DNA from: an uncultured Candidatus Saccharibacteria bacterium
Lineage (GTDB): Bacteria; Patescibacteriota; Doudnabacteria; UBA920
Assembly (NCBI GenBank): GCA_964490395.1
Contig: CAZBAS010000001.1
Span: 147,815 to 211,814, forward strand
Direction of reading: 5' to 3'
DNA length: 64,000 bases
In this document: positions 680 to 64,000 of the stretch, piece after piece
Layout: each line of letters begins with the position of its first letter
Position numbering within the stretch: position 1 is the first letter of the stretch
Made by a program: the position numbers and the translations under genes
Notes under the pieces: model-generated
The model's input: only the letters and a program-made list of their open reading frames with translations
What the model was told of the DNA's origin: nothing
The model's database searches: none

Positions 680-1132
680 ATGATTTCTCAAATAAAACTA
701 ATTAAGCTTCTGCAAGAAGGCGTGCTCGGCATAGACCCATTTATGCCAGAAAACATTAAAGGCCCCGCCATAAAAATTCACATTGGTACTTGGTACCAAA
801 TGCCACAGGAAAAAGCTATAGACGTAGATATGCTCCATAGCGTTCCCGCGCCAACTAAAATAGAAGCAACCGAGCTTCACATACTGCCAAACCAGATGGT
901 ACTCGCCAAAACGCTTGAGCATATTCGCATACCAGAAGGTTATGTTGGCTGGCTTGAAACTCGCGGCACCGCTGCAAATGTCGGTCTCCAGGCACACCTA
1001 ACAGACGCCCACTTAGATCCCGGTACCGACATGCAGCCATGGCTCCAAATAAAAAACCAGAGCGACCATACCCTAGTACTCCGCCATGGTACCTACGTAG
1101 CAAAGTTGTATTTATTTGAGCTAACGGATTAA
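680..1132 (+). CDS. dCTP deaminase-like paralog (dUTPase superfamily, shorter)
   Basis: 150 aa. MISQIKLIKLLQEGVLGIDPF...IKIHIG resembles the Dcd N-terminus but is more diverged. It lies between dcd and dut. Confidence 0.55.
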   Translation: MISQIKLIKLLQEGVLGIDPFMPENIKGPAIKIHIGTWYQMPQEKAIDVDMLHSVPAPTKIEATELHILPNQMVLAKTLEHIRIPEGYVGWLETRGTAANVGLQAHLTDAHLDPGTDMQPWLQIKNQSDHTLVLRHGTYVAKLYLFELTD

Positions 1133-1172
1133 TGTTAGGTACCAATATACCAATTAATACAAAACATATTGT

Positions 1173-1628
1173 ATGAAAGCGAAAATTACTAGAGTGCTTC
1201 CAGATGCAGAGTTGCCACAGTATCATACAAAAGAATCTGCAGGATTTGATATTGCGGCAGCTGAAGATGTAATCATAGAGCCTGGACAAGTGGTAAAGGT
1301 GCGTTCAGGTTTAATTATAGAGGCGCCAGAGGGGTATTTTTTAATGCTTACCTGTCGGAGCAGTCTTTCTTCTAAGAAGGGCCTGCACCTGGCGAATGGA
1401 GTTGGTACCATAGATCGCGACTTTAGTGGGCCAGAAGACGAGTTTAAAATAATTTTGCATAATTTTACCAACCAACCCGTAAAGGTAGCTAAAGGCGAGC
1501 GACTCGTGCAAGGAATATTTTTACCGGTAAATCAAGTAGCGTGGGAAGAAGTAGAGCAGATTCGCAATGAGAGTCGTGGCGGTATGGGGAGTACGGGTGG
1601 CTATGCAGAAGCAATTTCCAATGTCTAA
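1173..1628 (+). CDS. dut: dUTP diphosphatase (dUTPase)
   Basis: 151 aa. Motifs AGFDI, RSGL, GTIDRDFSG and a C-terminal RGGMGSTG are typical trimeric-dUTPase motifs. Confidence 0.85.
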   Translation: MKAKITRVLPDAELPQYHTKESAGFDIAAAEDVIIEPGQVVKVRSGLIIEAPEGYFLMLTCRSSLSSKKGLHLANGVGTIDRDFSGPEDEFKIILHNFTNQPVKVAKGERLVQGIFLPVNQVAWEEVEQIRNESRGGMGSTGGYAEAISNV

Positions 1629-1659
1629 TTTCTAATATCTAATGTTAGGAGAAAGAGAT

Positions 1660-2331
1660 ATGAAACAAAAAGGAAAACTCATTGTTATAGATGGAACAGA
1701 TGGTAGTGGGAAGGGCACGCAGGTTGCTCTTCTTTTGCAAAGGCTTAAGAAAGAAAAATATAAAACATATTTAGTTGACTTCCCTCAGTACGGAAAAAAA
1801 TCTGCTGGCGCTGTAGAGGAGCTGCTCAATGGAAAATACGGAATGCTAAACCCGTATGCGAGTTCTCTCCTGTATGCCGTAGACAGGCTTGATGCCTCAT
1901 TTGGTATACGCAAAGCCCTTGCTGAAGGAAAGGTGGTTATTGCTAACAGATACACAACAGCCAACGCAGGGCATCAGGGTGCGAAAATAGCAAGCAGGGG
2001 GGCGCGCAAGAAATTCTTCGCTTGGCTCGATGAGTTGGAGTTTAAGATTGTCGGGCTGCCGCGTCCCCATATGACCATTTTATTGCATGTACCATATAAA
2101 ATTGCTTACGGGCTCATTGGAAAGAAAGAAGCGAGGGGCTACCTAAAAGGTAAAAAGCGAGATATCGCGGAAAAAGATAAAAATCACTTACGGCGTGCAG
2201 AGGAAACATATTTAGAAATAGCAAAGACATTTCCGAAGGTGGCTATTGTAGAGTGTGTAGAGAAAAATGTGCTTTGCACACCTGAGCAAATCCACGAGCT
2301 TGTTTGGAAAAAAGTGAAGTCATTAATCTAA
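1660..2331 (+). CDS. tmk: thymidylate kinase
   Basis: P-loop GKLIVIDGTDGSGKGTQ at the N-terminus. The start was re-assigned to the ATG at 1660 (MKQKGK) with an AGGAGAAAGAG ribosome-binding site. The track's 1642 start lies inside the CTAAT repeat. Confidence 0.85.
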   Translation: MKQKGKLIVIDGTDGSGKGTQVALLLQRLKKEKYKTYLVDFPQYGKKSAGAVEELLNGKYGMLNPYASSLLYAVDRLDASFGIRKALAEGKVVIANRYTTANAGHQGAKIASRGARKKFFAWLDELEFKIVGLPRPHMTILLHVPYKIAYGLIGKKEARGYLKGKKRDIAEKDKNHLRRAEETYLEIAKTFPKVAIVECVEKNVLCTPEQIHELVWKKVKSLI

Positions 2332-2343
2332 GCAGAAACCCAT

Positions 2344-8421: not shown

Positions 8422-10251
8422 ATGAAACAGAATACGGATATAGAAAAGCAGGAGAGGGGTCTGCGGCAGGCTCTAAGCTCCCGCATGCGGAAAAGCAAAG
8501 TCTTCATGGCCGCTGTGCTTATAAGCATGGTTGCTGGCTTGCTACCTATAATAGTAGATTCTCCAAAAGTGGCAGAGGCGGATATGATTTCAGTGCTTAA
8601 GGCCGCTTTCAATGGCTACAGTACAAGTCAGAACCCAGGAGTAGCGCCGCGTGCTACAAATACAAATACATCTGCTGATGCTACTGCAGCAGCCGCCGCT
8701 GCTGCGTACAAATTTGTTTGTCCAGACGGGCAAGTAGAAAGCGGTCGCGTTGAACGTGAAGGCGCCATTCGTTGTGTGCCGTGTCCAGTGGGAACTGTGC
8801 GCATGTATGTTGGTGGCGGTGAAGCGTGCCATCCGCCGGGATTTAAAGTTGACTACAGCAACATCCCCGCTGGCTACGAAGTTGGTATGAATGGTCAAAT
8901 TTGTCGCTCCGACGGCCAGTCATATGCAGGCTCTTTTAACCGCCGTTATAAAAGCACGCAGCCGAATTTTGGTGAATGCTGCAATGGTGGATTTCGCGAT
9001 ACCAAGCCAGTGGTGGCGGGTAGTAGTGTAGCCTTGTTTATTTGCGGGGGTAACAACCCTGCGCAAAAGCCCACCCCACCTCCTTCAGGTGGCACGGGTG
9101 GTACTGGCCAAGGCGGAAGTACAGGCGGTAGCGGAAGCGGTGGTTCTGCTGGCGGAAGCGCTGCCCCTCATACCTTTGTTTGTCCAGACGGGCAAGTAGA
9201 AAGCGGCCGCGTTGAACGTGAAGGCGCCATTCGTTGTGTGCCGTGTCCAACGGGTACTGTACGCATGTATGTTGGTGGTGGCGAGTCGTGCCACCCACCA
9301 GGGTACAAGGTAGATTACAGCAACTTACTACCTGGCTATGAAATAGGTGCTAACGGACAAGTGTGTAGGTCCGATGGCCAGTCGTATGCAGGCTCATTTA
9401 ACCGCCGCTATAGAAGCACACAGGCAAATATGGGAGAGTGCTGTAATGGTGGATATAGAGATAGCAAACCAATAGTGGCGGGTAGTAGTGTGGCCTTGTT
9501 TATTTGCGGTGTGCCTACTGCAGCCCAAGCAGCTGCGGCAGGGTCGGTAGTGCCGCCATCTGCAGGTACCCAGGCAACCCAAGTTTCAAGACTGAGTGGT
9601 TCGTTTGACGGTGCCTCGTGTACTCAATTCTCGGGGTGGGCAATAAATAGCGCAGACCCTTCCGGCACTGTTACTGTGAAATTTTATTCAGGCGGGTCGC
9701 TTCGTGCTGGTAACCTCATAGGTTCTGTAACTACTACAGTGCAGCGAGACGATGTGAACGCTGCCAAAGGAGTTACGGGCACTCACGGGTTTACCTTTAC
9801 TGTCCCAGCCGGCACATTTACCGCTGGACAGACTTATCGGGTAGACGCCTATGCTGTTGGGTCTACAGACCAATTACTATCTGCTAGTCCAAAGACCGTT
9901 ACCTGTACTGCAGGTACTGGCACTCCACCTCCACCCGTACCTGACGCAACATATAAAGGTGGGCCAGTAGACCCAAATGCTACCTTTGTTATTAGTACTC
10001 CTGTAGATGGGAGTGTACTCTCTGGCTCAAGTTTTGACGCCACGTACTACTCCACAGCAGACTTGCTCTCTGGCGACTATATTATTTTCCAGTTGGACAA
10101 TCAAACGCCCGTAGGCGTAGCTGCCCCGGGGAGTGTATACCGATTCTCCAATGTCGCACCAGGTACCCATACGCTTCGAGGATATATTTCTCATGCAGAT
10201 GGAACGAAAGTTCCTGGTACGAGCACAAGTCGCACATTTACTACGCAGTAA
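8422..10251 (+). CDS. membrane-anchored Cys-rich surface protein with an internal tandem domain duplication
   Basis: 609 aa. N-terminal TM anchor. Two copies of a roughly 112-aa, 8-Cys domain (FVCPDGQVESGRVEREGAIRCVPCP...ECCNGG...ALFICG) separated by a Gly/Ser/Thr linker. C-terminal Thr/Gly-rich beta-type region. Confidence 0.6.
   Translation: MKQNTDIEKQERGLRQALSSRMRKSKVFMAAVLISMVAGLLPIIVDSPKVAEADMISVLKAAFNGYSTSQNPGVAPRATNTNTSADATAAAAAAAYKFVCPDGQVESGRVEREGAIRCVPCPVGTVRMYVGGGEACHPPGFKVDYSNIPAGYEVGMNGQICRSDGQSYAGSFNRRYKSTQPNFGECCNGGFRDTKPVVAGSSVALFICGGNNPAQKPTPPPSGGTGGTGQGGSTGGSGSGGSAGGSAAPHTFVCPDGQVESGRVEREGAIRCVPCPTGTVRMYVGGGESCHPPGYKVDYSNLLPGYEIGANGQVCRSDGQSYAGSFNRRYRSTQANMGECCNGGYRDSKPIVAGSSVALFICGVPTAAQAAAAGSVVPPSAGTQATQVSRLSGSFDGASCTQFSGWAINSADPSGTVTVKFYSGGSLRAGNLIGSVTTTVQRDDVNAAKGVTGTHGFTFTVPAGTFTAGQTYRVDAYAVGSTDQLLSASPKTVTCTAGTGTPPPPVPDATYKGGPVDPNATFVISTPVDGSVLSGSSFDATYYSTADLLSGDYIIFQLDNQTPVGVAAPGSVYRFSNVAPGTHTLRGYISHADGTKVPGTSTSRTFTTQ
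8713..9509. repeat. in-frame tandem duplication (462-bp period) inside CDS 8422..10251
   Basis: Copies at 8713-9047 and 9175-9509. The first roughly 75 nt of each copy are nearly identical (tttgtttgtccagacgggcaagtagaaagcgg...). Confidence 0.8.
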
Positions 10252-31037: not shown

Positions 31038-31058
31038 AGAATGAGTAATAATAGAAAT

Positions 31059-31141
31059 GCCTAATACCTAATTTCTAATGTGTGATGAAAGACGGGAGAA
31101 TATTCCGGACATTAGATATTAGGAATTGGAAATTAGACATT
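31059..31141. repeat. family-A palindromic element (CTAAT heptads), copy A2
   Basis: GCCTAATACCTAATTTCTAATG, a 30-nt spacer containing GAATATTC, then ATTAGATATTAGGAATTGGAAATTAGACATT. Upstream of zwf. Confidence 0.7.
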
Positions 31142-32933: not shown

Positions 32934-33059
32934 CATGAAAACATATAAGCATACAAACATGTAAACAAAAAGCATGTAAACATATAAACATGGCTCCCGA
33001 AGAGGCTCTGCCTTTTGTTTAAATGCTTACATGCTTGCATGTTTGTATATCCTGCTTCA
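32934..33059. promoter_or_regulatory. large imperfect inverted repeat in the pgl/glgP divergent intergenic region (candidate operator)
   Basis: The left arm ATACAAACATGTAAACAAAAAGCATGTAAACAT pairs with the right arm ATGCTTACATGCTTGCATGTTTGTAT. Both are built from CATGTAAAC-type motifs. Confidence 0.45.
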
Positions 33060-38721: not shown

Positions 38722-38846
38722 TTCCGGCCTCTCGCTGATTATGTACAAAACATTCCTACATTCTTAAGAATGTAGGAATGTTTTTCTATATCAGACACAT
38801 CCGTGGTAACAGTTAAAATTCATCTGTTTTCTATATACTTCAGCGT

Positions 38847-41894: not shown

Positions 41895-42090
41895 GTGATT
41901 GTTTCTGCTGTTTTAGCTGCCACCACAACCGCCACCACCACAACCGCCACCGCCACAGCTACTGCCACAACTACTCCCACCACCGCAACTGCTTGCACTT
42001 CCGCCACCGCCACAGCTGGGGCTGGACCCAGAACTGCTTCCGCCACAACTACCAGACGAGGTGCAGCCGGCTACAGAAGATAGTGTAGTC
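41895..42090. repeat. low-complexity GCC/ACC/ACA codon repeat encoding the Gly/Cys/Ser tail
   Basis: ccaccaccacaaccgccaccgccacagct... It generates spurious ORFs in all frames. Confidence 0.8.
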
Positions 42091-42620
42091 GGGGCATCTG
42101 ACATGACAATAAGGTTGCCGCAACTACTGTTGTTGCTTACGCTGCTTCCGAATTCTTGCTTTCGCAATTCTCTGCTTCGTTCGTCGGCTTTTTCCTGCGC
42201 ACCCGGGGTAAGCTTTAGCTCTGGGTTGTGATGGATAAAGCGACCAAACAAGTATTCGCAATCTGCTTGGTACTTAGCAGTATGCTGTATGTGGTAGTGC
42301 CACACTATATCGCAGTCTTCAGATAGCGGAGCAAGGGTTTCGTCCGGGTATTTGCCAAAGAGCACCAAAAGCTGCCGGTATTCTAACTCTGCTTTGTGAA
42401 GTCGCTTTTTGCCCCATCGCTGTTTCGCTTTGATCTTAGCGATAATGGGCGAGAGGTCCAGCAGCGCTGCTTTTTGCTGCACGGACTCAAGTGTTGCGGC
42501 TTTGGCAATGAGGTACTCTCGTCTGTTTCGCTCTTTCACTCTTCTCTGGAACCGCGCTCTCAGTAGTGCCAGCGCTAACAGTGTGAACATGCCAACTATG
42601 ATCCATAACAAAACTTCCAT
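41913..42620 (-). CDS. GRDP/DUF1399-like protein with an N-terminal TM and a C-terminal Gly/Cys/Ser-rich tail
   Basis: DCDIVWHYHIQHTAKYQADCEYLFGRFIHHNP resembles the DUF1399 core as I remember it. The tail is SSCGGGSSCGSSCGGGGCGGGGCGGS. Confidence 0.4.
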   Translation of the reverse strand: MEVLLWIIVGMFTLLALALLRARFQRRVKERNRREYLIAKAATLESVQQKAALLDLSPIIAKIKAKQRWGKKRLHKAELEYRQLLVLFGKYPDETLAPLSEDCDIVWHYHIQHTAKYQADCEYLFGRFIHHNPELKLTPGAQEKADERSRELRKQEFGSSVSNNSSCGNLIVMSDAPTTLSSVAGCTSSGSCGGSSSGSSPSCGGGGSASSCGGGSSCGSSCGGGGCGGGGCGGS

Positions 42621-47342: not shown

Positions 47343-47700
47343 CTATATGCACAAAGACCCCCTGATGTGTGCGCAGGGGGTCTTTGCTATCTATCAGATT
47401 TTGCAGGTCGAACATCTACTGGTCCATTGCTGCATCGGTGCTGCTGGTGCTATCGTCACGGCGACCATGGCGATCGTTTTGTCCGCCAGTTGTGTTGGCC
47501 TGTTTGCTGTTGTCGTTGTTATCGCGTGCCATATGCGTATCTCCTATATTTCTGGCCCGTGTGTGGGCGAGAAATAATTTAATAGACACTAGTACTATAC
47601 TGCTCGCGCCTGATAAAAAGATTAGGAAGATATGTATGGGCGTACGTAAGTAAGCATAAAAATATTATTCCGGCCATGGGCATAAGCAATAATAGGAGTA

Positions 47701-47775
47701 TAATTTCCGATTACCAATATCTAATTTCTAATGAAATGTCCAATGCAGAATATCGGATCATTGGAAATTATTTCC
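47701..47775. repeat. family-A palindromic element, copy A3
   Basis: TAATTTCCGATTACCAATATCTAATTTCTAATG, then a spacer, then CATTGGAAATTATTTCC. Lies at the 3' end of rlmI. Confidence 0.6.
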
Positions 47776-47779
47776 TCTA

Positions 47780-48961
47780 CTACTCTACATAAAGTAAAAG
47801 ACTCTTTAAATAATCACCTTCAGGAAAAAATAGATTAACAGGGTGGTCAACTGCCAGGAGGTGGTTACTAAGTATTTTTATCTTTCGGTTTGCGTCTTTT
47901 GCTGCCTGGAATACAATGGTTTGAAATGTTTGTACGTCTATGTGCTGTGAACACGAAGAGGTGAGAAGAAGGCCTCCCGCAGGAAGGTGCTGCATAGCCA
48001 TACGGTTTATTTCTCTATATCCTCTTGTGGCGTTAGGTATGTCGCTTGCGCGTTTCGCAAATGCGGGGGGGTCAAGAATTATAAAGTCATAGGTGTGGGG
48101 TAATGTTTGACGGCTTAAAAAGCGGAACACATCTTCGCAATAGAACGCGCTGTTTTTCGCGCTGAAACCGTTGAGTGTTATATTCTCTTGTGCTGCTGCA
48201 ATAGCATCTGGGTCAAGGTCTAGGGTGTCGGCTCGCTTTGCCTTACCAGATAATGCATACGCACTAAAGCCCCCTGTGTACCCAAAACAGTTGAGCAGTG
48301 TTTTACCTTTTGAGAAATTTTTTACCAGTTGACGCATTTCTCTTTGGTCTAAAAAAAAGCCAGTTTTTTGACCCTTAGAAAAATATACTTTGAATGCAAT
48401 GCCGTGTTCCAGTACTTCTATAGGTTCGGTGGCTTTGCCGTGAATCCAGGCCGACACATCTTCAAGCCCCTCTTTTCTCCGTGTGGGGCTGTTAGATTTT
48501 TCGTATATTGCTTTTGGTTTTATTTCTGCAATAAGAATTTCAAGAACCATGGGCTTTAACTTTTCCATGCCCAGCGTGTTTATTTGAACAACAAGCACTT
48601 TCCCATATTGGTCTACTATGAGTCCGGGCAGGTTATCGCCCTCACCGTTTATAAGTCTATACGCTGTTGTATCGGCGGGGGCATACTGTTTTCTCAGAGT
48701 TAATGCACTGAGAATGCTTTCCCGAATGCTTTCGAGCGGATCCTGCTCGCTAAAACTAACCATGCGCCCCATGATTGACTGTCCTTTGTTAAAATACGCA
48801 TACCCAATGAACTGACCATATGCAGTGTGCACGGGAAGAATGTCGCCATTTTCAAATTCCGGGGTGCTGCCTACTGCTCCCATGAATATCCAGGGGTGTC
48901 TATTGCGTGCGTGCACTTCGCGTCCTGGTTTAAGAACTACTGCTTTTTGCTGGGTATCCAT
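47780..48961 (-). CDS. rlmI: 23S rRNA (cytosine-C5) methyltransferase RlmI-like (PUA + class I methyltransferase)
   Basis: N-terminal VVLKPGREVHARNRHPWIFMGAV. Methyltransferase motifs LLNCFGYTGGFS and ILDPPAFAK. Confidence 0.75.
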   Translation of the reverse strand: MDTQQKAVVLKPGREVHARNRHPWIFMGAVGSTPEFENGDILPVHTAYGQFIGYAYFNKGQSIMGRMVSFSEQDPLESIRESILSALTLRKQYAPADTTAYRLINGEGDNLPGLIVDQYGKVLVVQINTLGMEKLKPMVLEILIAEIKPKAIYEKSNSPTRRKEGLEDVSAWIHGKATEPIEVLEHGIAFKVYFSKGQKTGFFLDQREMRQLVKNFSKGKTLLNCFGYTGGFSAYALSGKAKRADTLDLDPDAIAAAQENITLNGFSAKNSAFYCEDVFRFLSRQTLPHTYDFIILDPPAFAKRASDIPNATRGYREINRMAMQHLPAGGLLLTSSCSQHIDVQTFQTIVFQAAKDANRKIKILSNHLLAVDHPVNLFFPEGDYLKSLLLYVE

Positions 48962-49750: not shown

Positions 49751-49806
49751 AATTCCTAATTCCTAATTCCTAATTCCTAATTCCTAATTCCTAATTCCTA
49801 ATTCCC
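49751..49806. repeat. (TAATTCC)x8 heptanucleotide microsatellite abutting the start codon of the DUF134 gene
   Basis: Directly visible as aattcctaattcct...attccc followed immediately by ATG at 49807. Confidence 0.9.
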
Positions 49807-51310: not shown

Positions 51311-51343
51311 GGCCCCCGCCTATTATGAATAGGCGGGGGGAAT

Positions 51344-51426
51344 GTCTAATTCCTAATATCTAATTTCTAATGTCTCGGGCACTCTATAGTTTTTTATTTA
51401 GGCATTAGAAATTGGAAATTAGATAT
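51344..51426. repeat. family-A palindromic element, copy A5
   Basis: GTCTAATTCCTAATATCTAATTTCTAATG, a 30-nt spacer, then CATTAGAAATTGGAAATTAGATAT. Upstream of trxB. Confidence 0.7.
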
Positions 51427-51469
51427 TTTTAATACACTGAACTTAGCTGTACTAATTTAGAATGATTTT

Positions 51470-53659: not shown

Positions 53660-53980
53660 CTTTTCCTCCTGATGAAAAGTGTTGTAGGGTTGATTTTTTC
53701 TAGACAATAAAAAACCTCGGCTTGTCTAGCCAAGGCGTTCTTTTTATAGAGAAATTATTCAAAACTAAAAAGTTTGGAAATGCTCATGAACAGCGCCTGG
53801 GTCAGACAAACGGAAAACCGCCTGGTAGATGGTGGCTACCTGGGAAGTCCAGCGGCTGTTCATTTGTAAGCATTTTCCTAACATAATGGCGTTATAATAC
53901 CATACATATAGCCATATGTCTATAGCTGCGTAGTTGTAATTTCGGCGCTTCCGCTAATTCACCATGGTACGTATGCAAGG

Positions 53981-54020
53981 TCTACTATAAAAACGCGCGG
54001 CCGCGCGTTTTTATAGTAGA
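53981..54020. terminator. perfect 40-bp palindrome / bidirectional terminator containing GCGGCCGC
   Basis: TCTACTATAAAAACGCGCGG|CCGCGCGTTTTTATAGTAGA. The reverse complement of the left half equals the right half exactly. Confidence 0.7.
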
Positions 54021-54063
54021 CGCACTCTGGATGTCACATGCATTATATGGAGTAGCAAAAAAT

Positions 54064-55446: not shown

Positions 55447-56361
55447 ATGTACGACGTAATCATAATAGGTGGTGGTCCCGCTGGTATGACAGCGGCAATT
55501 TATACAGCTCGCAAAAAACTTAAAACATTGCTTCTTGCCAAGCAAATGGGTGGGCAAATGGTGTGGAGTAGTGACGTAGAAAACTACACTGGTTTTTCCA
55601 TGCTTTCAGGTGCGGACTTGGCTTTGAAATTTGAGGAACACCTCAAAAGCATTCCAGAGGACTTAGAGGTAAAGGATGGTACTGAAGTGGTACATATAGA
55701 GCGCAACATTACCACTTTTGAAGTGCAAACCAAGACCGAAGAAACATTCTATGCTAAAGCAGTTATTATTGCTTCAGGTAAGGAGCCTCGGCATTTGGGT
55801 ATACCAGGGGAAGAAAAGTTCTACGGCCGTGGTGTTGCCGTTTGCGCTACCTGTGACGCGCCGCTGTATAAAAACAAAGACGTTGCAGTGGTAGGCGGTG
55901 GCAACAGCGCCATGGACGCGCTTCTTGCATTGTCTAAGGTTGCACGAAAGATATACAGCATAAACGTAAATGAACAGCTTACTGGTGATAGTGTGCTTAA
56001 GGCAAAGATTGAAAGTAATCCGGCCATTTCTTTTTACACTGCAACCAAAACACTTGAGGTGCAAGGTGAAAAGGGGATAACTGGATTGGTGGTGCAAAAA
56101 GCGGGTGGCGCCCCAGAAACAGTGCCAGTGTCAGGAATATTTGTAGAAATAGGATACTCGCCCTCAAACAGTTTTGATCGCCTGAGCGATAAAAACGAAA
56201 AAGGGGAAATAAAAGTAGATGGTAATTTGCAGACCTCTATCCCTGGACTCTTTGCTGCGGGCGACATAAATGATGCCTGGGGTGAGCAAATAATTATTGC
56301 TGCGGGCGAAGGCGCAAAAGCTGCTTTGGCCGCCGCAAACTATGTAAATGGAATCAAATAA
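55447..56361 (+). CDS. thioredoxin reductase-like flavoprotein (second TrxB paralog)
   Basis: GGGPAGMTAAIY, CATCDA and VVGGGNSAMD motifs. Confidence 0.75.
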   Translation: MYDVIIIGGGPAGMTAAIYTARKKLKTLLLAKQMGGQMVWSSDVENYTGFSMLSGADLALKFEEHLKSIPEDLEVKDGTEVVHIERNITTFEVQTKTEETFYAKAVIIASGKEPRHLGIPGEEKFYGRGVAVCATCDAPLYKNKDVAVVGGGNSAMDALLALSKVARKIYSINVNEQLTGDSVLKAKIESNPAISFYTATKTLEVQGEKGITGLVVQKAGGAPETVPVSGIFVEIGYSPSNSFDRLSDKNEKGEIKVDGNLQTSIPGLFAAGDINDAWGEQIIIAAGEGAKAALAAANYVNGIK

Positions 56362-56435
56362 GTAGAAAGTTCATAAAGTACATAAAGTCCGTAAAGTAAT
56401 ACTTTATGAACTTTCTACTTTATGACTTTATAAAC
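56361..56435. repeat. family-B palindromic element (TAAAGT units), copy B1
   Basis: AGTAGAAAGTTCATAAAGTACATAAAGTCCGTAAAGTAAT|ACTTTATGAACTTTCTACTTTATGACTTTATAAAC. Fills the trxB2-purF intergenic region. Confidence 0.7.
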
Positions 56436-56439
56436 CTGT

Positions 56440-57858
56440 ATGGAGTTAAACGAAAAGTGCGCGGTATTTGGAATATATGGTAGGGATATAGACGTGGCGA
56501 GGCTTACCTTTTTTGGGTTGTATTCGTTGCAGCATCGTGGCCAAGAAAGTTCGGGTATAGCAGTGAGTGACGGAAGCGAACTGTATTGCTACAAAAACAA
56601 TGGGCTTGTTGCGCACGTGTACGACGAAGTACATATTCGTGCTCTGAAGGGCCATATAAGCGTGGGGCACAATCGCTACTCTACTTCGGCTGGTAGCGGC
56701 TTGCATCATGCGCAGCCCATTCTTACAGCTGGAAATAAAGTTGCAGTAGCGCACAATGGTAATTTGCCCAGCGTGGTTGCGTTGCTCGCATTTTTGAAGA
56801 GCGTGGAAAGAAACACCGAAGGGAAATCTGACTCTGCACTGATAGCGGATGCAGTAGGGTATTACGTTGAGCAGGGCATGGCTCTTGCAGAAGCGGTTGA
56901 AAAAGTATTTCCTCTCATGACCGGTGCGTTTTCCCTGCTATTTATGGACGCACAAACGCTGGTTGCGGTGCGAGACGGCTTTGGTATTCGCCCGTTGTGC
57001 CTTGGCCAAATAGGGGAAGCGCATGTAGTTTCGTCTGAGACCTGCGCGCTCGATGCCATTGGTGCTACCTATGTGAACGATGTTGCGCCAGGAGAGCTCG
57101 TTGCCATTAACGCCAGCGGTCTTACCAGAAAACAGCTCGTGGCCCCCGACCAAAAAATGGATATATTTGAATATATCTATTTTGCGCGCCCCGATAGTAT
57201 GTTGCTGGGGCAATCTGTATATGAGGTGCGATGCAGGTTTGGTAAACAGCTGGCAGCAGAGTATCCCGTTGATGCAGATATAGTAGTGCCTGTTCCAGAA
57301 ACTGCAAACCCCATGGCTATAGGGTATGCGCGCGAGTCTGGCCTGCCGTTTGAAATGGGTCTCATTAAAAACAGGTATGTGCATCGAACGTTCATTGAGC
57401 CCGACCAGCATATACGTGACCTCGGCGTTAAGATGAAACTGAATCCACTCCCGTCCGTGCTGAAAGGTAGGCGCGTGATTGTGGTTGATGATTCCATTGT
57501 TCGTGGTACTACGTCGCGGCAAATAGTACGCATGTTATTCTCGGCTGGTGCTACAGAAGTTCACTTTTTGGTTAGTTCGCCGCCCGTGCGATTTCCAGAT
57601 TTTTACGGCATAGACTTAGCGAGTCAATCGCAGATGCTGGCGTTCCGAAAGTCGGTAGAAGATATGCGTGTGTTTTTAGGCGCTACTTCCCTTGGGTTTT
57701 TGTCTTACGAAGGCATGATTGCTGCTACAGGGGTCCCTGAGTCGAGCTTGTGTACCTCCGTATTTACCGGGCACTATCCTTTGCCTATTCACGAACGAGA
57801 AGCGGATGTGTCACATACGGTGTTGCCAGACGCAGATGCATCGCGAGTAATTGTATAG
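56440..57858 (+). CDS. purF: amidophosphoribosyltransferase
   Basis: N-terminal nucleophile context EKCAVFGIYG. GHNRYSTSAG. PRTase motif VIVVDDSIVRGTT. Confidence 0.85.
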   Translation: MELNEKCAVFGIYGRDIDVARLTFFGLYSLQHRGQESSGIAVSDGSELYCYKNNGLVAHVYDEVHIRALKGHISVGHNRYSTSAGSGLHHAQPILTAGNKVAVAHNGNLPSVVALLAFLKSVERNTEGKSDSALIADAVGYYVEQGMALAEAVEKVFPLMTGAFSLLFMDAQTLVAVRDGFGIRPLCLGQIGEAHVVSSETCALDAIGATYVNDVAPGELVAINASGLTRKQLVAPDQKMDIFEYIYFARPDSMLLGQSVYEVRCRFGKQLAAEYPVDADIVVPVPETANPMAIGYARESGLPFEMGLIKNRYVHRTFIEPDQHIRDLGVKMKLNPLPSVLKGRRVIVVDDSIVRGTTSRQIVRMLFSAGATEVHFLVSSPPVRFPDFYGIDLASQSQMLAFRKSVEDMRVFLGATSLGFLSYEGMIAATGVPESSLCTSVFTGHYPLPIHEREADVSHTVLPDADASRVIV

Positions 57859-57929
57859 CCAAAAGCTTCAATTTTTCATCGCGACAAGGCTTTGCGAAGA
57901 GGCAACCTAAAGTTTGTATATAGGACACG

Positions 57930-58856
57930 TTGGATTGCCGCGTCGGATGCAAGGCCAATCTGATAAAGATAAAAGTTTTCTCATATTTTTACTTTTTCCT
58001 CATGCACAATTTCTTTCTTACCATAATTTTTTGGATAGATCGGTTCCTCCAGCTGCTTGGTTTAAGACGACAGCGGCAGCTTGGGGTTATTTACGATAGT
58101 GTTACCAAGCAGCCCATAGACCCAGTTGTGGTGAAACTTATAGATGTGCATACATCCAAAGTTATTGCTTCGAATATTGCCAACATGCAAGGCGAGTATG
58201 GGTTCATGGCAGACCCGGGTTTGTACCAAATATATGTGCAGCGCCCGCACTATGCATTTCCCTCTACGCGCATACAAAGTTTACGTGATGGCGTGTACTA
58301 CCCCGTGTACCATGGAGAAAATTTTGAGTTCGTCGGTGGTAAGGACGTTATTTCCATGAGTATACCGCTGGACCCCATTGCGGCTGACTGGAACCAAGAA
58401 GCCAAAAAAGCCACCATGCCTGTGCATCCAGTGCTCCAATATGCCATTAGTGTAATACTGCGAATATTGTTTTGGTCTGCATTGCTACTCACTGTTATAA
58501 CATTCCTCGCAACAAGGGCTGACCTATGGGTGTATGTGCTCGGTGCGTATGTTTTGGTTATTTTGCTCGCGCTTATTACTCCTCGTGTGCGCTTGTGGGG
58601 GAGGGTGCGCGTTAAAAAAGGCGGGCTACCTGTTGTGGGCGCAAGTGTAGAAGTGTCTCATGCAAAACTCCCCGGAGTTATAATAGCCAAAGCAGTAACC
58701 GTAACAGATGGTAAGTTTTTTATCCGCATTGGCCGAGGCTCATATACCGTAACGGTAAAAGTGCCTCCACTTAAAGACGGGCCTCCCGCACCGCCCATAG
58801 AATTCAGCATCCACGCTGGCTCAACTGGCGTTTTAAACCGGGAATTTTATATATGA
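57930..58856 (+). CDS. membrane protein with two carboxypeptidase-regulatory-like beta domains
   Basis: GVIYDSVTKQPIDPVVVKL... and GRVRVKKGGLPVVGASVEV...TDGKFFI are separated by 2 TMs. The start may be the internal ATG at 58002 (MHNFF). Confidence 0.4.
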   Translation: MDCRVGCKANLIKIKVFSYFYFFLMHNFFLTIIFWIDRFLQLLGLRRQRQLGVIYDSVTKQPIDPVVVKLIDVHTSKVIASNIANMQGEYGFMADPGLYQIYVQRPHYAFPSTRIQSLRDGVYYPVYHGENFEFVGGKDVISMSIPLDPIAADWNQEAKKATMPVHPVLQYAISVILRILFWSALLLTVITFLATRADLWVYVLGAYVLVILLALITPRVRLWGRVRVKKGGLPVVGASVEVSHAKLPGVIIAKAVTVTDGKFFIRIGRGSYTVTVKVPPLKDGPPAPPIEFSIHAGSTGVLNREFYI

Positions 58857-59192
58857 TCCCTCATCCTCAAACCCCTCTCGGGCAGCCTTATAGCCTTTAC
58901 AAGTTGGCTAAAACATGGTATTATAAGCGGTCCCAAATGGACCAAAAACAAAACTTGCACCACTGCAAGTTTTTAGTTTGTACTTTTACATATAAACGGG
59001 GGAGTTATTTTAGAGAGGTTAGTGTATGAATTTTGGACTTACCAGCAACGCGAAAAGTATTACAAAAGTTTGTGGAATATTTTTTGCGTTGTTGGTTTGT
59101 GCGTAATAAAAAATGTGCTGCGAGCAGTGCATCAATAAATACGCGTTTTGCATTTCCATTGAGCGCTCGTAAGGCGCTGTAACTCGGAGGGT

Positions 59193-59978
59193 GTGATGGC
59201 ATTTGCTCTTTGTTGTCTGAGAACGGCCGTTGCTGTTCTCGCGTTGTTTGCGTGCGTGTTTTCTTGCGCGCTGGCGCAACAGCAAAACCCAGCTATTCAG
59301 CTTGGCGTTGCCGTGGCTGATGGCAATGGTAACGCGACCGTTGCCGTGGGCCTGCAGTCCTCGGGCCAGGTGGCCGGGTATGGATTAAGCGTTTCTTATG
59401 ATTCCACTGAATTGGAATTTGTAAAAGCGAGCAATAACACGCAGAATTTGAGCTGTAATTTTAATTCTGCACGGCTTGGTGTTGTGGGCGTTGCCTGTGC
59501 GTTTCTTGGCTTGCCAACTTTTCCGACGGGTTATGTTGAGCCCGTAAGTCTGGTCTTTCAGACAAAGAAAAAGGGTGGTGTCTTTGTGCTGGGCACCGGA
59601 GACTTTCCAGTGCAGCAGCAAATAAGCGACTCGCGTGCGCGCGAGTTATACGCCAAGTTTGACGGCGGGTTTATTCTCGCACACCAGCCAACGGCGTACG
59701 TCAGCGCCCATCTACCCTCCAGCAACTCTACCACTCCGGTGGCGTATGTGTTTGCTGGCGGCTTACGAGATGCTGACTACGCCGAGGTCTGGGTAGATAA
59801 TAACTATGGAAGTTACATCATAGATATTATTTACCCTGGGCATGGTGATAGTCGGTCCGCATTTATAGCGCCCGGGCAAGTCAGCAGAATTCGCGTTGTG
59901 CCCGTTGTGCGGGGCCGTCGCTTAAACACGGTGGCAACAGTTTTCGTTGTCACCAGTATGCCGTTTGGCATACAATAA
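59193..59978 (+). CDS. secreted hypothetical protein (high-GC gene)
   Basis: Signal peptide AVAVLALFACVFSCALAQQ. Roughly 57% GC, well above the surrounding sequence. Confidence 0.4.
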   Translation: MMAFALCCLRTAVAVLALFACVFSCALAQQQNPAIQLGVAVADGNGNATVAVGLQSSGQVAGYGLSVSYDSTELEFVKASNNTQNLSCNFNSARLGVVGVACAFLGLPTFPTGYVEPVSLVFQTKKKGGVFVLGTGDFPVQQQISDSRARELYAKFDGGFILAHQPTAYVSAHLPSSNSTTPVAYVFAGGLRDADYAEVWVDNNYGSYIIDIIYPGHGDSRSAFIAPGQVSRIRVVPVVRGRRLNTVATVFVVTSMPFGIQ

Positions 59979-60416
59979 ACTTCTCTTCCTAAGACGCGGC
60001 AGGCTGGTACTTACTACAGTTTGCCGCGTCTTTTCGTTTGGGTACTTTTGATAATGAATTCGCACTTTTATCATGTTTAAGCCATGTCTAGCTATTTACA
60101 ATATACTCATTATATTGTATAATAGTAAAGTTGCGTAAATAGCAACAGAAACAAAAACTTGTTGGGAAACCTCTCAAGTTTTTTTATTTGTTCTTTTCAA
60201 TATTTAGGGGGATTTATTTTAGAGAAGGTTATTTTTAATTGTTTCATTGTTTTTGGTTTTATGGTACTACGAGAAGTAGGAAGAGCGCGGATAATATTAC
60301 CCGCTTTATTTCTACCTCTCGTATACCACTTACGGCGCAATTGGTGCGTTCGTGTAGTGGTAGGTAACAAACTTAGCAGTCCAACCCGTCCGCGGTGGAA
60401 AGCCCGGACAAGGAGT

Positions 60417-61247
60417 ATGCAGACAATGAAAAAGTATCCGACATTTCCCAAGCTTGCAGCACTCTGCTGCGCAATCGCCATGGCCGTGATCACGCTCTGT
60501 TCAGCCACCACAGCCCAAACCCGTAAACCTGTCGAAACCATTATTGGTCAACTGAACGCGGACCCGACCACTGCCCTGAGTCTGGTTCATGCAGTGAGTG
60601 GAAATGACGAGTTTGGTGTCTACATGGCACCGACATTCAGTACGTGGTTGAACGATGGGCTCAACAGTTATGGGGTTCGTTTTTTGAAGTCCTACGCAAA
60701 GCCGGCACGTTTGCAAATCGTTCAGTACAAGCTGGACTACGATGGCAGATTCATTCCCCTTGGTCAGTTGAATATCAAAGCAGATTTGAGCGGCGGGCTC
60801 AAAGAGCGCAAAATCGAAGACATCGCGCAGGCGTTCATGAACCCTCGTACAAACGGGGGAACGCCGATAATGTCCGTTTTCTTTCTCAGTGCTGAGGAGG
60901 GTGGTATTCTTGACGCCGCTATAATTTATCAGTATCACAGGCAAACTTACACCATGGCCGGAGATTTTTTTACGGACTATAGCGTGAAAGGTTTGTCTGT
61001 GAGCTTTGCTGGGCGCTTTACTCCCAACACAGCGTGGCGCTATGCGGTCATTACGAGTAATGGTGACGTAATTGATTCGGGCGACGCGGCCATGGTTAGC
61101 GGACCAGACGGTATTGGTATAAAGGTCAACATTCGGCCCGACCGTCTTTACGCCGATTTCATGGCTGTCTCAATCGTGCTTACTAACCGTAATACGGCGC
61201 AGGTTTTGTTTGCGCCGGACGTAACCGTCATTGGTCAGACTCGCTAG
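60417..61247 (+). CDS. secreted hypothetical protein (high-GC gene)
   Basis: Start re-assigned to the ATG at 60417 (AAGGAG ribosome-binding site). Signal peptide LAALCCAIAMAVITLCSATTAQT. Confidence 0.4.
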   Translation: MQTMKKYPTFPKLAALCCAIAMAVITLCSATTAQTRKPVETIIGQLNADPTTALSLVHAVSGNDEFGVYMAPTFSTWLNDGLNSYGVRFLKSYAKPARLQIVQYKLDYDGRFIPLGQLNIKADLSGGLKERKIEDIAQAFMNPRTNGGTPIMSVFFLSAEEGGILDAAIIYQYHRQTYTMAGDFFTDYSVKGLSVSFAGRFTPNTAWRYAVITSNGDVIDSGDAAMVSGPDGIGIKVNIRPDRLYADFMAVSIVLTNRNTAQVLFAPDVTVIGQTR

Positions 61248-61359
61248 TCTGGCCGCCTGAATAACCTTCCCTCACCCTAGGGCGTGGATAGCTATCTTTA
61301 TGGAGTTAAACACTTCGTAACACTAGCAATCCACGCCCTTTGTATTTTTATATTTTTAA

Positions 61360-61401
61360 TTATTAGAATTCTACTCACAATTGTGAGTAGAATTCTAATA
61401 A
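61360..61401. repeat. perfect 42-bp palindrome containing ATTAGAA/TTCTAAT heptads
   Basis: TTATTAGAATTCTACTCACAA|TTGTGAGTAGAATTCTAATAA. Confidence 0.85.
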
Positions 61402-61472
61402 TTAATATATTTTGTATAGATAATAAAACCGGCAGCCGCTTCGTTGGTGCTGAAGTGGTGTCGGTCGGGAGA

Positions 61473-61745
61473 TTATGGTCTTTTTATACGGTTTGCTTCG
61501 GCCTCGGGCATGCCGAGAGTTTCCGCTGCCAAATAAATTTGTACTGCCTCATCGTCCTCAATGGCCTTATTTGCCATGAGGTCTACGAGTATTCCCTTGC
61601 ATGATCGCATGGAGAAGAATTTGAAGAGCACTCGTTCGACCCCATGCTCACATGTAATAAATACATATGCATGCGGCATGAAGTCTGCAAAAAGGCAGTT
61701 CGTACATCTGGCTACTCGCCAGCGAGGCTGAGAGTTGTCTGCCAT
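61473..61745 (-). CDS. hypothetical Cys-rich small protein
   Basis: 90 aa, CTNC...C.HG. Possible zinc ribbon or Fe-S binding. No family recognised. Confidence 0.3.
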   Translation of the reverse strand: MADNSQPRWRVARCTNCLFADFMPHAYVFITCEHGVERVLFKFFSMRSCKGILVDLMANKAIEDDEAVQIYLAAETLGMPEAEANRIKRP

Positions 61746-61976
61746 GAGCTTCCCTCCTTATGGCTGTTGGTCGTCTCGTGGCTATTTTGAGACGGGGAGT
61801 TTTAATTTGGTCACGAGTTTCTGAGTAGGGTAGTGCGTACCTCTGGAGATGCGCAGCAACTACTCACAAATTGGGACAGTTTTGGTTTGACGTCCCATTA
61901 TAGATGATTGATGAGGGTTTTGGAAGGGGCGGTTAAAGGTGCCTCTCCCAACCCTCTCCACGTAGGAGAGGGGAAT

Positions 61977-62004
61977 ACAAAAGACTGCCATAAGGCAGCC
62001 TTTT
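61977..62004 (-). terminator. Rho-independent terminator of efp
   Basis: AAAAGACTGCC-ATAA-GGCAGCCTTTT followed by GTATT on the minus-strand sense. Confidence 0.6.
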
Positions 62005-62061
62005 GTATTGGGTACTGAAAGCTAAAAAGCTAATCAGCTAAGAAGCTACTAGCTATGTATG

Positions 62062-62619
62062 CTAGTTCGCGCGTTCTATGTATTCCCGGGTGCGGGTGTC
62101 TACAACAATGGATTCACCTTCTTTTATAAAGAGAGGAGCGTCTACTACAAGGCCGGTTTCGAGCGTGATCTTTTTGGTAACAGAACCGCCAGAGTCACCG
62201 CGAATGCCTGGAGGGGCATCGGTAACTTTGTACACAACCTTTATAGGAAGTTCAATGGATACAGGCTGGCCGTTGAAGCGCAGCACAGAGACTTCTATGC
62301 CTTCTTTGAGCAATGGTTCCTGCTCCTCGGTAACTTCTTTGTTAAAGTCTATTGGCTCAAACGTTTCGTTGCTCATAAAGTGAGTACCGTCGCTGTCTGT
62401 GTAGAGGAAGTTTGCTTTCTCGCGTGATACATCTGCTTCGTCTATTTTTTCACCAAACTTGAACGAATATTCCATTACCTTGCCGGTAATAACGTTACGC
62501 AACTTAGTTTGCATAACTGGCTTGCGCTGAGCAGTGCGCATGCGGTTGGACCAAATTACCTGAAACGGATCGCCGTTGTACAGGATAATGGTCCCGACTT
62601 TCATATCGTTTAAATCCAT
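62062..62619 (-). CDS. efp: elongation factor P
   Basis: 185 aa. KOW-like N-terminus and two OB domains. Typical EF-P length and pattern. Confidence 0.85.
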   Translation of the reverse strand: MDLNDMKVGTIILYNGDPFQVIWSNRMRTAQRKPVMQTKLRNVITGKVMEYSFKFGEKIDEADVSREKANFLYTDSDGTHFMSNETFEPIDFNKEVTEEQEPLLKEGIEVSVLRFNGQPVSIELPIKVVYKVTDAPPGIRGDSGGSVTKKITLETGLVVDAPLFIKEGESIVVDTRTREYIERAN

Positions 62620-62631
62620 GGGTCTAGTAAT

Positions 62632-62691
62632 TAGTTGTCAGTAGTCAGTTGTCAGTGTGAAACTGACCACTGACTACTATATTCTGACTAC
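62632..62691. repeat. family-C palindromic element (GTCAGT units), copy C1
   Basis: TAGTTGTCAGTAGTCAGTTGTCAGT-GTGAAA-CTGACCACTGACTACTATATTCTGACTAC. Ends 6 nt before the rpsR stop. Confidence 0.75.
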
Positions 62692-62696
62692 GTATT

Positions 62697-62936
62697 TTAT
62701 GCAGCTACAAACGGGAGGAAGGCCATGTGGCGAGCGCGCTTGAGAGCCAAGGTTATCATGCGCTGGTGCTTTGAGCAGCTGCCGGTTTTCTTCCGGTTCA
62801 TTATTTTAGCGTGCGGGGACATAAAGCGGCGCAGAGTCTGCCCGTCTTTATAGTCTACTGTCGTAATCTTGTTTGTGCAGAAGTAACAATTCTTCTTCAC
62901 AACTGGGATGTCTTTATCTCTCTGTTGAGGTCTCAT
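62697..62936 (-). CDS. rpsR: 30S ribosomal protein S18
   Basis: CYFCTNKITTVDYKDGQTLRRFMSPHAKIMNRKKTGSCSKHQRMITLALKRARHMAFLP is the S18 signature. Confidence 0.9.
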   Translation of the reverse strand: MRPQQRDKDIPVVKKNCYFCTNKITTVDYKDGQTLRRFMSPHAKIMNRKKTGSCSKHQRMITLALKRARHMAFLPFVAA

Positions 62937-62948
62937 AAATGTAAGTAC

Positions 62949-63008
62949 TTAGTTGTCAGTAGTCAGTTGTCAGTACAAAACCGACTACTGACCACTATAT
63001 TCTGACTA
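62949..63008. repeat. family-C palindromic element, copy C2
   Basis: TAGTTGTCAGTAGTCAGTTGTCAGT-ACAAAACC-GACTACTGACCACTATATTCTGACTAC. Starts 13 nt after the rpsR start. Confidence 0.75.
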
Positions 63009-63012
63009 CTGT

Positions 63013-63495
63013 TTAAAATGGTATATCTTCTACTTGAATGTCGTCGGCTTGGATGGTGGGGAGCTCGTCGTTATTGTCCAGAGCTTCGCCGCCTTTGCTT
63101 GGGCCCTGTGATGCAGCTGGTGCTTGCTGAGAGAAACCTTCTCCCGCATTTCCACTGCTACCACTTGGCTTGCCAAGCATAATCATGTTATCAGCAATAA
63201 TTTCGGTGCGGTATTTCTTTTGTCCGTCCTGTGCATCCCAGCTTCTGGTTTGCAGGCGTCCTTCCAAATATACTTGCGTACCTTTTTTCAAGTACTGTGC
63301 TGCAATATCTGCAAGTTTGCGCCAGAGGACTACGTTATGGAACTCAGTCTGCTCAACCTTTTGGCCTGTTTGCTGGTTGGTGTATGCATACCCAGTCGCT
63401 ATGCTTAGCTGGCATACGTTTACTCCGGAAGGAGTGGCGCGTAGCTCAGGGTCGCGGGTAAGGCGACCAATGATCATAACTTTGTTTAAGTCCAT
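63013..63495 (-). CDS. ssb: single-stranded DNA-binding protein
   Basis: OB fold (MDLNKVMIIGRLTRDPELR...). Gly/Ser-rich linker. Acidic C-terminal DIPF. Confidence 0.85.
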   Translation of the reverse strand: MDLNKVMIIGRLTRDPELRATPSGVNVCQLSIATGYAYTNQQTGQKVEQTEFHNVVLWRKLADIAAQYLKKGTQVYLEGRLQTRSWDAQDGQKKYRTEIIADNMIMLGKPSGSSGNAGEGFSQQAPAASQGPSKGGEALDNNDELPTIQADDIQVEDIPF

Positions 63496-63507
63496 ATAAG
63501 TTAGTTT

Positions 63508-63574
63508 GTAAAGTTCATAAAGTAGAAAGTTTATAAAGTAATACTTTACGGACTTTATAAACTTTATGAACTTT
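63508..63574. repeat. family-B palindromic element, copy B2
   Basis: GTAAAGTTCATAAAGTAGAAAGTTTATAAAGTAAT|ACTTTACGGACTTTATAAACTTTATGAACTTT. Fills the rpsF-ssb intergenic region. Confidence 0.7.
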
Positions 63575-63578
63575 TTAC

Positions 63579-64000
63579 TTATTTTATAATATCTTCAGAA
63601 AGAGCGGCTTCAATTTGTTTGTCCAGGTCTTCGGAAGAAATAGCGACCGGTTCCTTCTTTGGCGCTGGTTCTATTTCTATTGCAGGTGCTTCTTCTACAG
63701 CAGCTACGGGTGCTTCCTCTACTGGAGCTGGAGCAACCGGGGTTGCCACTGGAGCAGGGGACTCAGCTTCGCTCCCATCTTCAGGACGCTTGGAAAGTTT
63801 GCTCTGGGCAACAGTATCTATTTCCGTACGACGAATGTGCTCGTCCAAGTTCACAAGTAGGTGGCGAATGATAGTACCGGTTTGGGTACGAATCTTTGCA
63901 TCTAGCTCGTTTACTTTGCGGCTATCCATAGTAAACTGCACCACAACGTAAAAACCGTTGCGGGTCTTCTTGATTGGGTATGCGAGTTTCTTTTTACCCA
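63579..64000 (-). CDS. rpsF: 30S ribosomal protein S6 (N-terminus may run beyond the window end)
   Basis: S6-like core with an acidic/Pro-rich C-terminal tail. No in-frame ATG is seen before the window end; the track used GTG. Confidence 0.7.
   Translation of the reverse strand, partial: GKKKLAYPIKKTRNGFYVVVQFTMDSRKVNELDAKIRTQTGTIIRHLLVNLDEHIRRTEIDTVAQSKLSKRPEDGSEAESPAPVATPVAPAPVEEAPVAAVEEAPAIEIEPAPKKEPVAISSEDLDKQIEAALSEDIIK

Follow-up and report, generated by a model that had tools for sequence, protein, structure and literature searches.

Hairpins with tandem-unit arms as exchangeable whole-spacer alleles around rpsR in an uncultured Candidate Phyla Radiation bacterium

Two palindromic repeats stand on either side of rpsR, the gene for ribosomal protein S18, in a 64,000-nt stretch (hereafter the window) of contig CAZBAS010000001.1 from an uncultured bacterium of the Candidate Phyla Radiation (CPR). 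The question raised by this locus is what these repeats, copies C1 and C2 of an element named Family C, are, and how they came to lie inside the operon rpsF-ssb-rpsR-efp (Table 1). Comparison with related contigs showed that C1 and C2 are members of a diverse class of hairpins with arms made of tandem units, which is enriched in this lineage, fills the spacers between genes and is swapped in the form of whole-spacer alleles. Beyond this, we consider it rather probable that the class consists of exchangeable intergenic hairpin elements found throughout the lineage, which would have dispersed as DNA and would act as stem-loops in RNA.

There are exactly two occurrences of the 25-mer TAGTTGTCAGTAGTCAGTTGTCAGT in the window (+ strand, 62632-62656 and 62950-62974), and it had no match in 100 shuffles with up to 3 mismatches permitted. 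The full repeat extends over 66 nt, and the two copies, which lie 318 nt apart, share 89% identity. Their arms consist of three or four 7-nt units (GTCAGTN / NNACTGA). In fact, Tandem Repeats Finder (TRF) detected period 7 at both sites with 3.4-3.6 copies, both arms are in 7-nt phase, and the GTCAGTNGTCAGT pattern gave 6 matches versus 0.17 expected. The inverted arms of C1 are 17 nt long with 94% complementarity and form a core stem of 17 bp (23 pairs including the outer helix), and the best pairing of C2 is displaced by exactly one 7-nt unit relative to C1. On the sense strand, Family C begins with the 5' segment GTAGTCA GAATATA GTAGTCA GTGGTCA GT, followed by a loop of 5-6 nt and the 3' segment AC TGACAAC TGACTAC TGACAAC TAA(T/G)TACT; in C1 the loop is TTCAC and the strand closes with TAATTACT. 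The 3' arm is identical in both copies, and the 5' arms contain the same units in permuted order. According to the gene calls, 5 nt separate the end of C1 from the rpsR stop codon, and C2 starts 12 nt beyond the rpsR start codon. An initial annotation, made from the letters of the window, had described the two copies with their identical 25-mer, the inverted arms, the GTCAGT units and this spacing to the ends of rpsR, and the analysis bore these points out.

Furthermore, the repeats are not an assembly artefact, because Logan contig L001, an independent assembly, matches ssb-C2-rpsR-C1-efp with 100% identity throughout, and the family recurs in three other assemblies (L085, L099 and L007). They were not assigned to any Rfam family: at the gathering threshold only a tRNA reached threshold in the window, and in E-value mode only generic miRNA-precursor hairpin models matched, far below threshold.

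As operon-sense RNA, both spacers are predicted to fold into a hairpin of ~20 bp (-29.8 kcal/mol and z -6.1 for the C1 spacer, -27.3 kcal/mol and z -4.1 for the C2 spacer). Stable stem-loops directly downstream of open reading frames (ORFs) could be intrinsic terminators or attenuators which isolate the transcription of rpsR. Nevertheless, this is very improbable: no U-run is found past either stem (the following sequences are ACUAAUUACUAGACCC and ACUAAGUACUUACAUUU), a terminator scan of both strands came up empty at C1 and C2, the evident terminators of the window carry A- and T-runs, and in some relatives the operon, whose gene order is conserved, has very short spacers. Since the hairpins have no terminator features, rpsR would be flanked by two of them on the polycistronic mRNA, as the initial annotation had predicted. 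The sense strand of the spacers contains stop codons in all three frames, and the last heptamer unit is located 11 nt (C1) or 12 nt (C2) from the next ATG. Neither spacer has a Shine-Dalgarno (SD) motif. SD-like motifs (GGAG, GAGG or AGGA, scored within 20 nt upstream of the start codon in all called window genes) precede only 12 of the 62 window genes and none of ssb, rpsR and efp; judging from these motifs, the organism seems to rely mostly on SD-less initiation.

The class to which C1 and C2 belong was surveyed in 100 unique spacers from ~50 Doudnabacteria-type operons. Spacers shorter than 55 nt accounted for 39 of them, and 61 measured 55 nt or more. Among these long spacers, 36 folded with a z of -3 or lower, and the self-similarity peak was at period 7 for 32 spacers and at period 10 for 15. 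In the hairpin arms of the Doudnabacteria loci the autocorrelation at shift 7 was 0.447 versus ~0.28 for the remaining shifts; in the control loci, taken from other phyla, the hairpin arms had no autocorrelation peak at shift 7. Hairpins with period-7 arms were also more frequent, with 20 in 285 kb of Doudnabacteria loci versus 3 in 381 kb of other phyla (binomial p = 1.8e-5), and so were the TRF arrays of period 7 (18.6 versus 4.5 per 100 kb). The elements take up nearly the whole intercistronic spacer between stop and start codon, and some relatives have spacers of 10-30 nt without a hairpin at the same sites.

The exchange of elements is seen between closely related strains. In ssb, rpsR and efp, contig L085 from another sample is ~99% identical to the window, and the two have an identical C2. 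The rpsR/efp spacer of L085 has, in place of C1, an unrelated hairpin of 99 nt with ~10-nt units (-24.9 kcal/mol), and the replacement runs from one base past the stop codon to the last base ahead of the ATG; a relative of this replacement element was sought in the window and nothing beyond chance was found. In the same way, L106 and L112 are 100% identical in rpsR DNA and at least 99.5% identical in the flanks, and their ssb/rpsR spacers belong to different families. L112 presents an L107-type single nucleotide polymorphism 6 nt before the ssb stop codon and matches L106 further out. Its spacer thus bears the signature of a patch of ~95-135 nt, probably imported by homologous recombination with crossovers in the conserved ssb end and rpsR start. 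A chimeric contig is unlikely here, because the L112 spacer differs from L107 at three positions and the longest junction run shared with L106 is 20 nt. The rpsF/ssb junction of L106 and L107 was also considered as a filled-versus-empty site, but this candidate failed because the L106 rpsF ORF reads into the same array.

Among contigs with an identical S18 protein, no fewer than six different families occur at ssb/rpsR and no fewer than five at rpsR/efp. Reading the spacers in the order rpsF/ssb, ssb/rpsR and rpsR/efp, the families are AAAGT, C and C in the window; AATTG, AAAGT and CAGGGTA in L116; AATTG in all three spacers of L004; an array, ACGAAA and another family in L111; and a short spacer, another family and ACGAAA in L006. 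Adjacent spacers are often of one family, as in the window, L007, L099, L004 and L030, which points to local copying.

These comparisons also bear on the proposal of the initial annotation that the repeats bracket rpsR like a cassette. In this explanation, rpsR would be a mobile or recombined cassette bounded by attC-like recombination sites, or the repeats would be the footprint of such an event. Direct repeats do flank one small gene, and the elements resemble integron attC sites in being structure-defined imperfect palindromes between co-directional genes, with inverted 7-bp boxes and modular exchange. However, the GTTRRRY / RYYYAAC core sites are absent from both strands of both spacers, and the window yielded no integrase. 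On either side of the elements lie fixed core genes: the order rpsF-ssb-rpsR-efp does not change across the Doudnabacteria-type relatives examined, rpsR occupies the same position in every one of them and has diverged normally (75-100% identity), and the spacers are the swapped parts. The rpsF/ssb spacer is also filled by a hairpin, of another family, and the same sites in relatives hold unrelated hairpins or short spacers. A cassette is therefore scarcely credible. The alternative suggestion of a recombination or insertion footprint comes near the mark, as the spacers are sites of element gain or replacement, but rpsR is not the exchanged unit.

Family C itself was found at both spacers (ssb/rpsR and rpsR/efp) in three lineages, represented by the window, L007 and L099, and only at ssb/rpsR in L085. 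A covariance model (R1) built from six copies and searched against 367 kb of related DNA recovered 7 copies, all of them in these two spacers, and no diverged copy besides. No additional copy of Family C came from a metagenome scan with the conserved 20-mer AGTCAGAATATAGTNGTCAG, whose matches were two chance ones in coding sequence and one contig with a related heptamer hairpin (L084). The ssb/rpsR spacer of L002, taken by eye for a decayed copy, was dropped because R1 did not detect it. The initial annotation had named unrelated spacers in close relatives, together with the lack of other copies of the 25-mer, as evidence that would speak against its view. Some of these spacers are indeed unrelated, including the one at C1 in the ~99% identical strain, but L099 and L007 do contain other copies of the family, at the two corresponding sites.

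Pairs of copies show 2-7 differences over 65 core positions. Family C of the window and that of L007 are identical at 59-62 of 66 nt (89-94%), versus 75% for rpsR DNA, 81% for efp DNA and 47-58% for third codon positions, so the element is far more alike than neutral DNA. The same was observed in other families: the AAAGT spacers of L107 and L112 share 96.5% identity (ssb 83%, rpsR 92%), and the AATTG spacers of L004 and L110 share 96% (rpsR 87.5%). The two Family C copies of L007 both have edges of the ssb/rpsR type, with no more than 2 positions different between them. As one family can recur at different loci and be better conserved than the genes next to it, the class seems to behave as dispersed or mobile DNA.

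A different explanation is that the hairpins are vertically inherited functional RNA structures which evolved in place under selection and are immobile, their arrays arising by local slippage; RNase III processing sites or translational-coupling stems of the S6-SSB-S18-EF-P operon would be examples. The fixed orientation, the filling of spacers from stop codon to start codon and the lack of SD sequences in the downstream genes fit this explanation, and so do the permutation of units between C1 and C2 and their displacement by 7-nt steps, as expected from slippage, the existence of pure tandem arrays, and the conservation of Family C, which is about equal to that of the efp terminator hairpin. 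On the other hand, unrelated families stand at one site in ~99% identical strains, and the same family, including its non-repeat loop and edges, is present at different spacers and at an unrelated locus. Moreover, the spacers of 10-30 nt in some relatives lack the hairpin, and no covariation was seen. Evolution in place is a serious candidate, but on balance we regard it as unlikely.

The reading that we favour, exchangeable hairpin elements, would work at two levels. The class would comprise intergenic hairpins of 60-110 nt with arms of three or four imperfect 7-nt units, or units of 8-10 nt in some families. At the DNA level they would be dispersed repeats in the sense of repetitive extragenic palindromic (REP) sequences or miniature inverted-repeat transposable elements (MITEs), with arrays that may grow and reshuffle in 7-nt steps, and local copying or gene conversion could carry them to neighbouring spacers. 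Between related genomes, whole-spacer patches could move by short-patch homologous recombination, in which the conserved ends of the flanking genes would act as homology arms. At the RNA level the elements would be transcribed within the operon mRNA as stems of ~20 bp which would not terminate transcription; as intercistronic stem-loops they probably affect how the mRNA is processed, how stable its 3' ends are or how readily ribosomes reach the SD-less next gene. Any function would have to be structure-dependent and replaceable or dispensable, since unrelated sequences substitute for each other and some relatives have only short spacers.

Orientation is relevant to this mechanism, as 25 of 25 within-family comparisons scored better in the same transcriptional orientation. 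The two AAAGT copies of the window, ~7 kb apart on opposite chromosome strands, have equal orientation relative to transcription, and only this pair separates transcription from local copying, because most of the orientation pairs lie within one operon. The uniform orientation inside the operon could stem from local copying, and a single copy outside it tests orientation against transcription. This is the first of several points that weigh against exchangeable elements acting in RNA. No transposase, REP-associated tyrosine transposase (RAYT), integrase or reverse transcriptase was found in Pfam scans of 50 window ORFs or on reading the remaining called genes, and no target-site duplication appears on the flanks as read (AATAC/AGACCC for C1, ACA/TACATTT for C2). 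There are only two Family C copies in 64 kb, and the copies found with the model are confined to the same two spacers; since the 7 copies in 367 kb have this distribution, the mobility of Family C itself is put forward by extension from the class. The six aligned copies contain 0 compensatory pairs, and for this reason Family C alone neither shows nor excludes structural selection. Sense-strand folding had no advantage against composition-matched shuffles (z -4.25 sense, -4.50 antisense, p = 0.57); better antisense folding, which 38 of 48 spacers showed at first, was rejected because the difference disappeared against the same kind of shuffles. Finally, the high identity between species could also reflect selection at the sequence level, and the strain comparisons are based on short metagenomic contigs.

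Concerning known elements, the composition of the arms is closest to the heptamer repeats. TAACTGA arrays have been described in Beggiatoaceae, Cyanobacteria and Bacteroidetes (MacGregor 2015, PMC4679880), where the direct repeats lie just upstream of SD-less start codons, including those in ribosomal-protein operons, and show 7-nt indels and contig breaks (PMC4679880). The elements described here share with them the 7-nt units in short imperfect intergenic arrays, often before SD-less start codons, the indels in 7-nt steps, the contig breaks at arrays and a host with rare SD use (PMC4679880). In fact, the sense 3' arm of Family C is CAACTGA CTACTGA CAACTAA in the forward orientation, with matches to TAACTGA at 6 of 7 positions; CAACTGA and CTACTGA are each one position off, and CAACTAA is among the units too. 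However, the published arrays are almost all direct and have no predicted structure (PMC4679880), whereas here they are paired with an inverted array and fill the spacer, many unit sequences coexist and the host is a CPR bacterium. No paper linking heptamer repeats with CPR bacteria was found in the searchable literature.

This likeness raises the possibility that the functional part is the single-stranded heptamer array before the start codon, with the inverted arm as a secondary mask. A binding platform for S1 or a Csp-like protein was proposed for the TAACTGA repeats (PMC4679880), and the forward 3' arm of Family C, which matches that unit (PMC4679880) and ends 11-12 nt before the ATG, could be one as well. 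The pure arrays of the window (AATTCCT and short NNCTAAT, Table 1), which end at or just before start codons, and the rarity of SD motifs in the genome agree with this. Nevertheless, the many unrelated unit sequences at the same sites would require many binding specificities, and the arrays here nearly always have an inverted arm, unlike the Beggiatoaceae genome with its 169 direct sets and 1 indirect set (PMC4679880). Hence, a single-stranded platform is improbable.

Hairpins of the same unit type exist in other lineages, as L084 and L086 carry AGTCAGN/ACTGACN-type hairpins. Contig L084 (BART01006989.1) contains three of them, at 559-634, 1126-1159 and 1288-1363, with a 20-mer in common with Family C, and its OmpR-type regulator and toxin-antitoxin genes look cyanobacterial, by eye only. 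Seven contigs carrying ACTGACN arrays came out of a viral scan with ACTGACAACTGACTACTGAC, of which one (L086) has the inverted partner and none is Family C; in L086 (2784-2878), (TCAGTTN)x5 is followed by a GC-rich hairpin and (ACTGACN)x3. It could be speculated that intercistronic hairpins with heptamer arms form one phenomenon across phyla (CPR, Cyanobacteria, Beggiatoaceae and some phages), having a job at the RNA level under rare SD use, for instance as gates between cistrons for ribosomes or for mRNA processing, together with a dedicated but unknown spreading mechanism and whole-spacer horizontal exchange. We hold this wider scenario to be distinctly doubtful.

Among co-transcribed palindromes, REP sequences, bacterial interspersed mosaic elements (BIMEs) and REPINs are also short, extragenic and located downstream of ORFs, mostly between co-directional or convergent genes; they are probably transcribed, and several families coexist per genome (PMC3733652, PMC3116915). 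Both mRNA stability and ribosome stalling are influenced by REPs that lie near stop codons and inside operons (PMC12306157). Nevertheless, REPs measure 20-40 bp with stems of 6-13 bp (PMC3733652) versus 66 nt and a stem of ~17-22 bp in Family C, and their arms are not tandem arrays. GTAG-tagged REPs have been reported (Di Nocera et al. 2013, PMC3733652). Each of the six aligned copies of Family C starts with GTAGTCAG (GTAG) on the sense strand. The GTAG or CGTC tag of REPs is unpaired (PMC3733652), whereas the GTAG of Family C is one of several, lies inside the repeated unit and is predicted to be paired in the consensus fold. REPs are also marked by many copies per genome and an accompanying RAYT gene (PMC3733652); no RAYT, HUH or tyrosine transposase was found among the window ORFs scanned (64 kb with two Family C copies).

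Correia/NEMIS elements of Neisseria, ERIC, BOX and RUP are intergenic, co-transcribed and strain-variable elements of 60-150 nt with inverted arms, which can be cleaved by RNase III. They have defined terminal inverted repeats and target-site duplications, and no tandem sub-structure. The elements of the window are similar to these MITE-type hairpins in their inverted arms, intergenic sites and strain variability, and differ in that no duplication is evident and the arms are arrays of units. By analogy, it seems that they would work most like the co-transcribed palindromes of the REP/BIME and MITE type, while their composition matches the heptamer-repeat class.

Heptamer tandem repeats, the short tandemly repeated repetitive (STRR) sequences of cyanobacteria, were reportedly described by Mazel et al. 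in 1990. Neither STRR nor TAACTGA repeats have an established origin or function, and the elements found here are a compact, hairpin-forming version of heptamer repeats in tiny CPR genomes, inside an essential ribosomal-protein operon. The natural allele swaps place different elements at one spacer in otherwise isogenic backgrounds, a tractable comparative system for effects on mRNA processing and translation. They also show that, in a streamlined genome, the spacers between the cistrons of core operons can change faster than any other part and be exchanged horizontally. In practical terms, the elements break short-read CPR assemblies, because contigs begin or end inside AATTCCT, NNCTAAT and AAAGT elements, and they could serve as strain markers. 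Contigs L093, L094 and L095, from other samples, begin inside the AATTCCT array, two of them without one base in the last unit, and Logan contigs end inside the NNCTAAT array at 51338 and inside the AAAGT palindrome.

Table 1. Positions in the window of the Family C copies, the operon genes and the other repeat elements.
Feature	Position	Strand	Remarks
Family C copy C1	62626..62691	-	occupies rpsR/efp spacer 62620-62696; core stem 62640-62656 with 62662-62678
Family C copy C2	62944..63009	-	occupies ssb/rpsR spacer 62937-63012; best stem 62950-62968 with 62979-62997
rpsR (ribosomal protein S18, 79 aa)	62697..62936	-	gene call, PF01084
ssb (single-stranded DNA-binding protein, 160 aa)	63013..63495	-	gene call; PF00436 in orthologues
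efp (elongation factor P, 185 aa)	62062..62619	-	gene call
rpsF (ribosomal protein S6)	63579..64000	-	gene call; 5' end beyond the window
Hairpin after efp	61974..62009	-	probably operon terminator; conserved in L005, L007
AAAGT-family hairpin	63503..63576	-	fills rpsF/ssb spacer 63496-63578; Family C architecture, other unit sequence
Second AAAGT-family copy	56360..56431	+	fills spacer between trxB-like gene and purF
NNCTAAT-family hairpin, heptamer arms	31053..31141		zwf/gnd spacer
NNCTAAT-family hairpin, heptamer arms	51338..51430		between divergent genes
NNCTAAT-type hairpin	47699..47775		intergenic gap 47654-47779, just past the 3' end of a methyltransferase gene (47780-48961, -)
Perfect (AATTCCT) x7.9 tandem array	49751..49805	+	ends 1 nt before DUF134 gene ATG; no inverted partner
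Short NNCTAAT array	1613..1643	+	overlaps dUTPase gene end, upstream of tmk
Hairpin with arms of ~8-nt units (AAACATAT)	32934..33044

Regarding the host, the closest EF-P relatives (89-91% amino-acid identity) are metagenome-assembled genomes labelled Candidatus Doudnabacteria or, automatically, with other CPR names; on protein sequence, the organism is placed as a CPR bacterium close to Candidatus Doudnabacteria.

Downstream of the operon, a tandem array of about four 8-nt units (AAAGCTAA) is located at 62018-62048, between the efp stop codon and the terminator hairpin. In the relatives L002, L005, L006, L007 and L106, a trxB-like gene lies convergent to efp, directly past this hairpin, and in the window the two genes are ~5.6 kb apart. 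The intervening segment, 56362-61970, looks like an insertion or rearrangement in this comparison; it contains purF, a CarboxypepD_reg-domain protein, two ORFs without a Pfam match and large palindromes, and the AAAGT-family hairpin next to purF forms one of its edges.

Palindromes without heptamer sub-structure were observed at 61356-61405, 53980-54021 and 38747-38784, with arms of 25, 21 and 19 nt at 100% complementarity and no loop, and at 61279-61339, with arms of 28 nt at 79%. They are unlike both the unit-array hairpins and the terminators with T-runs.

Elsewhere in the window, a nucleotide-metabolism cluster (15-4014) comprises two adjacent dCTP-deaminase-like genes, a dUTPase, a thymidylate kinase and a ThyX of 556 aa, which has two Thy1 stretches and is roughly twice as long as Pfam's Thy1 domain (191 positions). 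A direct repeat of 300 nt with 81% identity (8697-8996 and 9159-9458, 462 nt apart) is found within one ORF of 609 aa (8422-10251) that has no Pfam match, and it is probably an internal domain duplication. Lastly, a CCA/CCG-rich repeat with periods of 12-15 nt (41902-42050) falls within ORF 41913-42620 of the minus strand; the predicted product is a glycine-rich repeat protein, whose Pfam match (GRDP-like) is weak.

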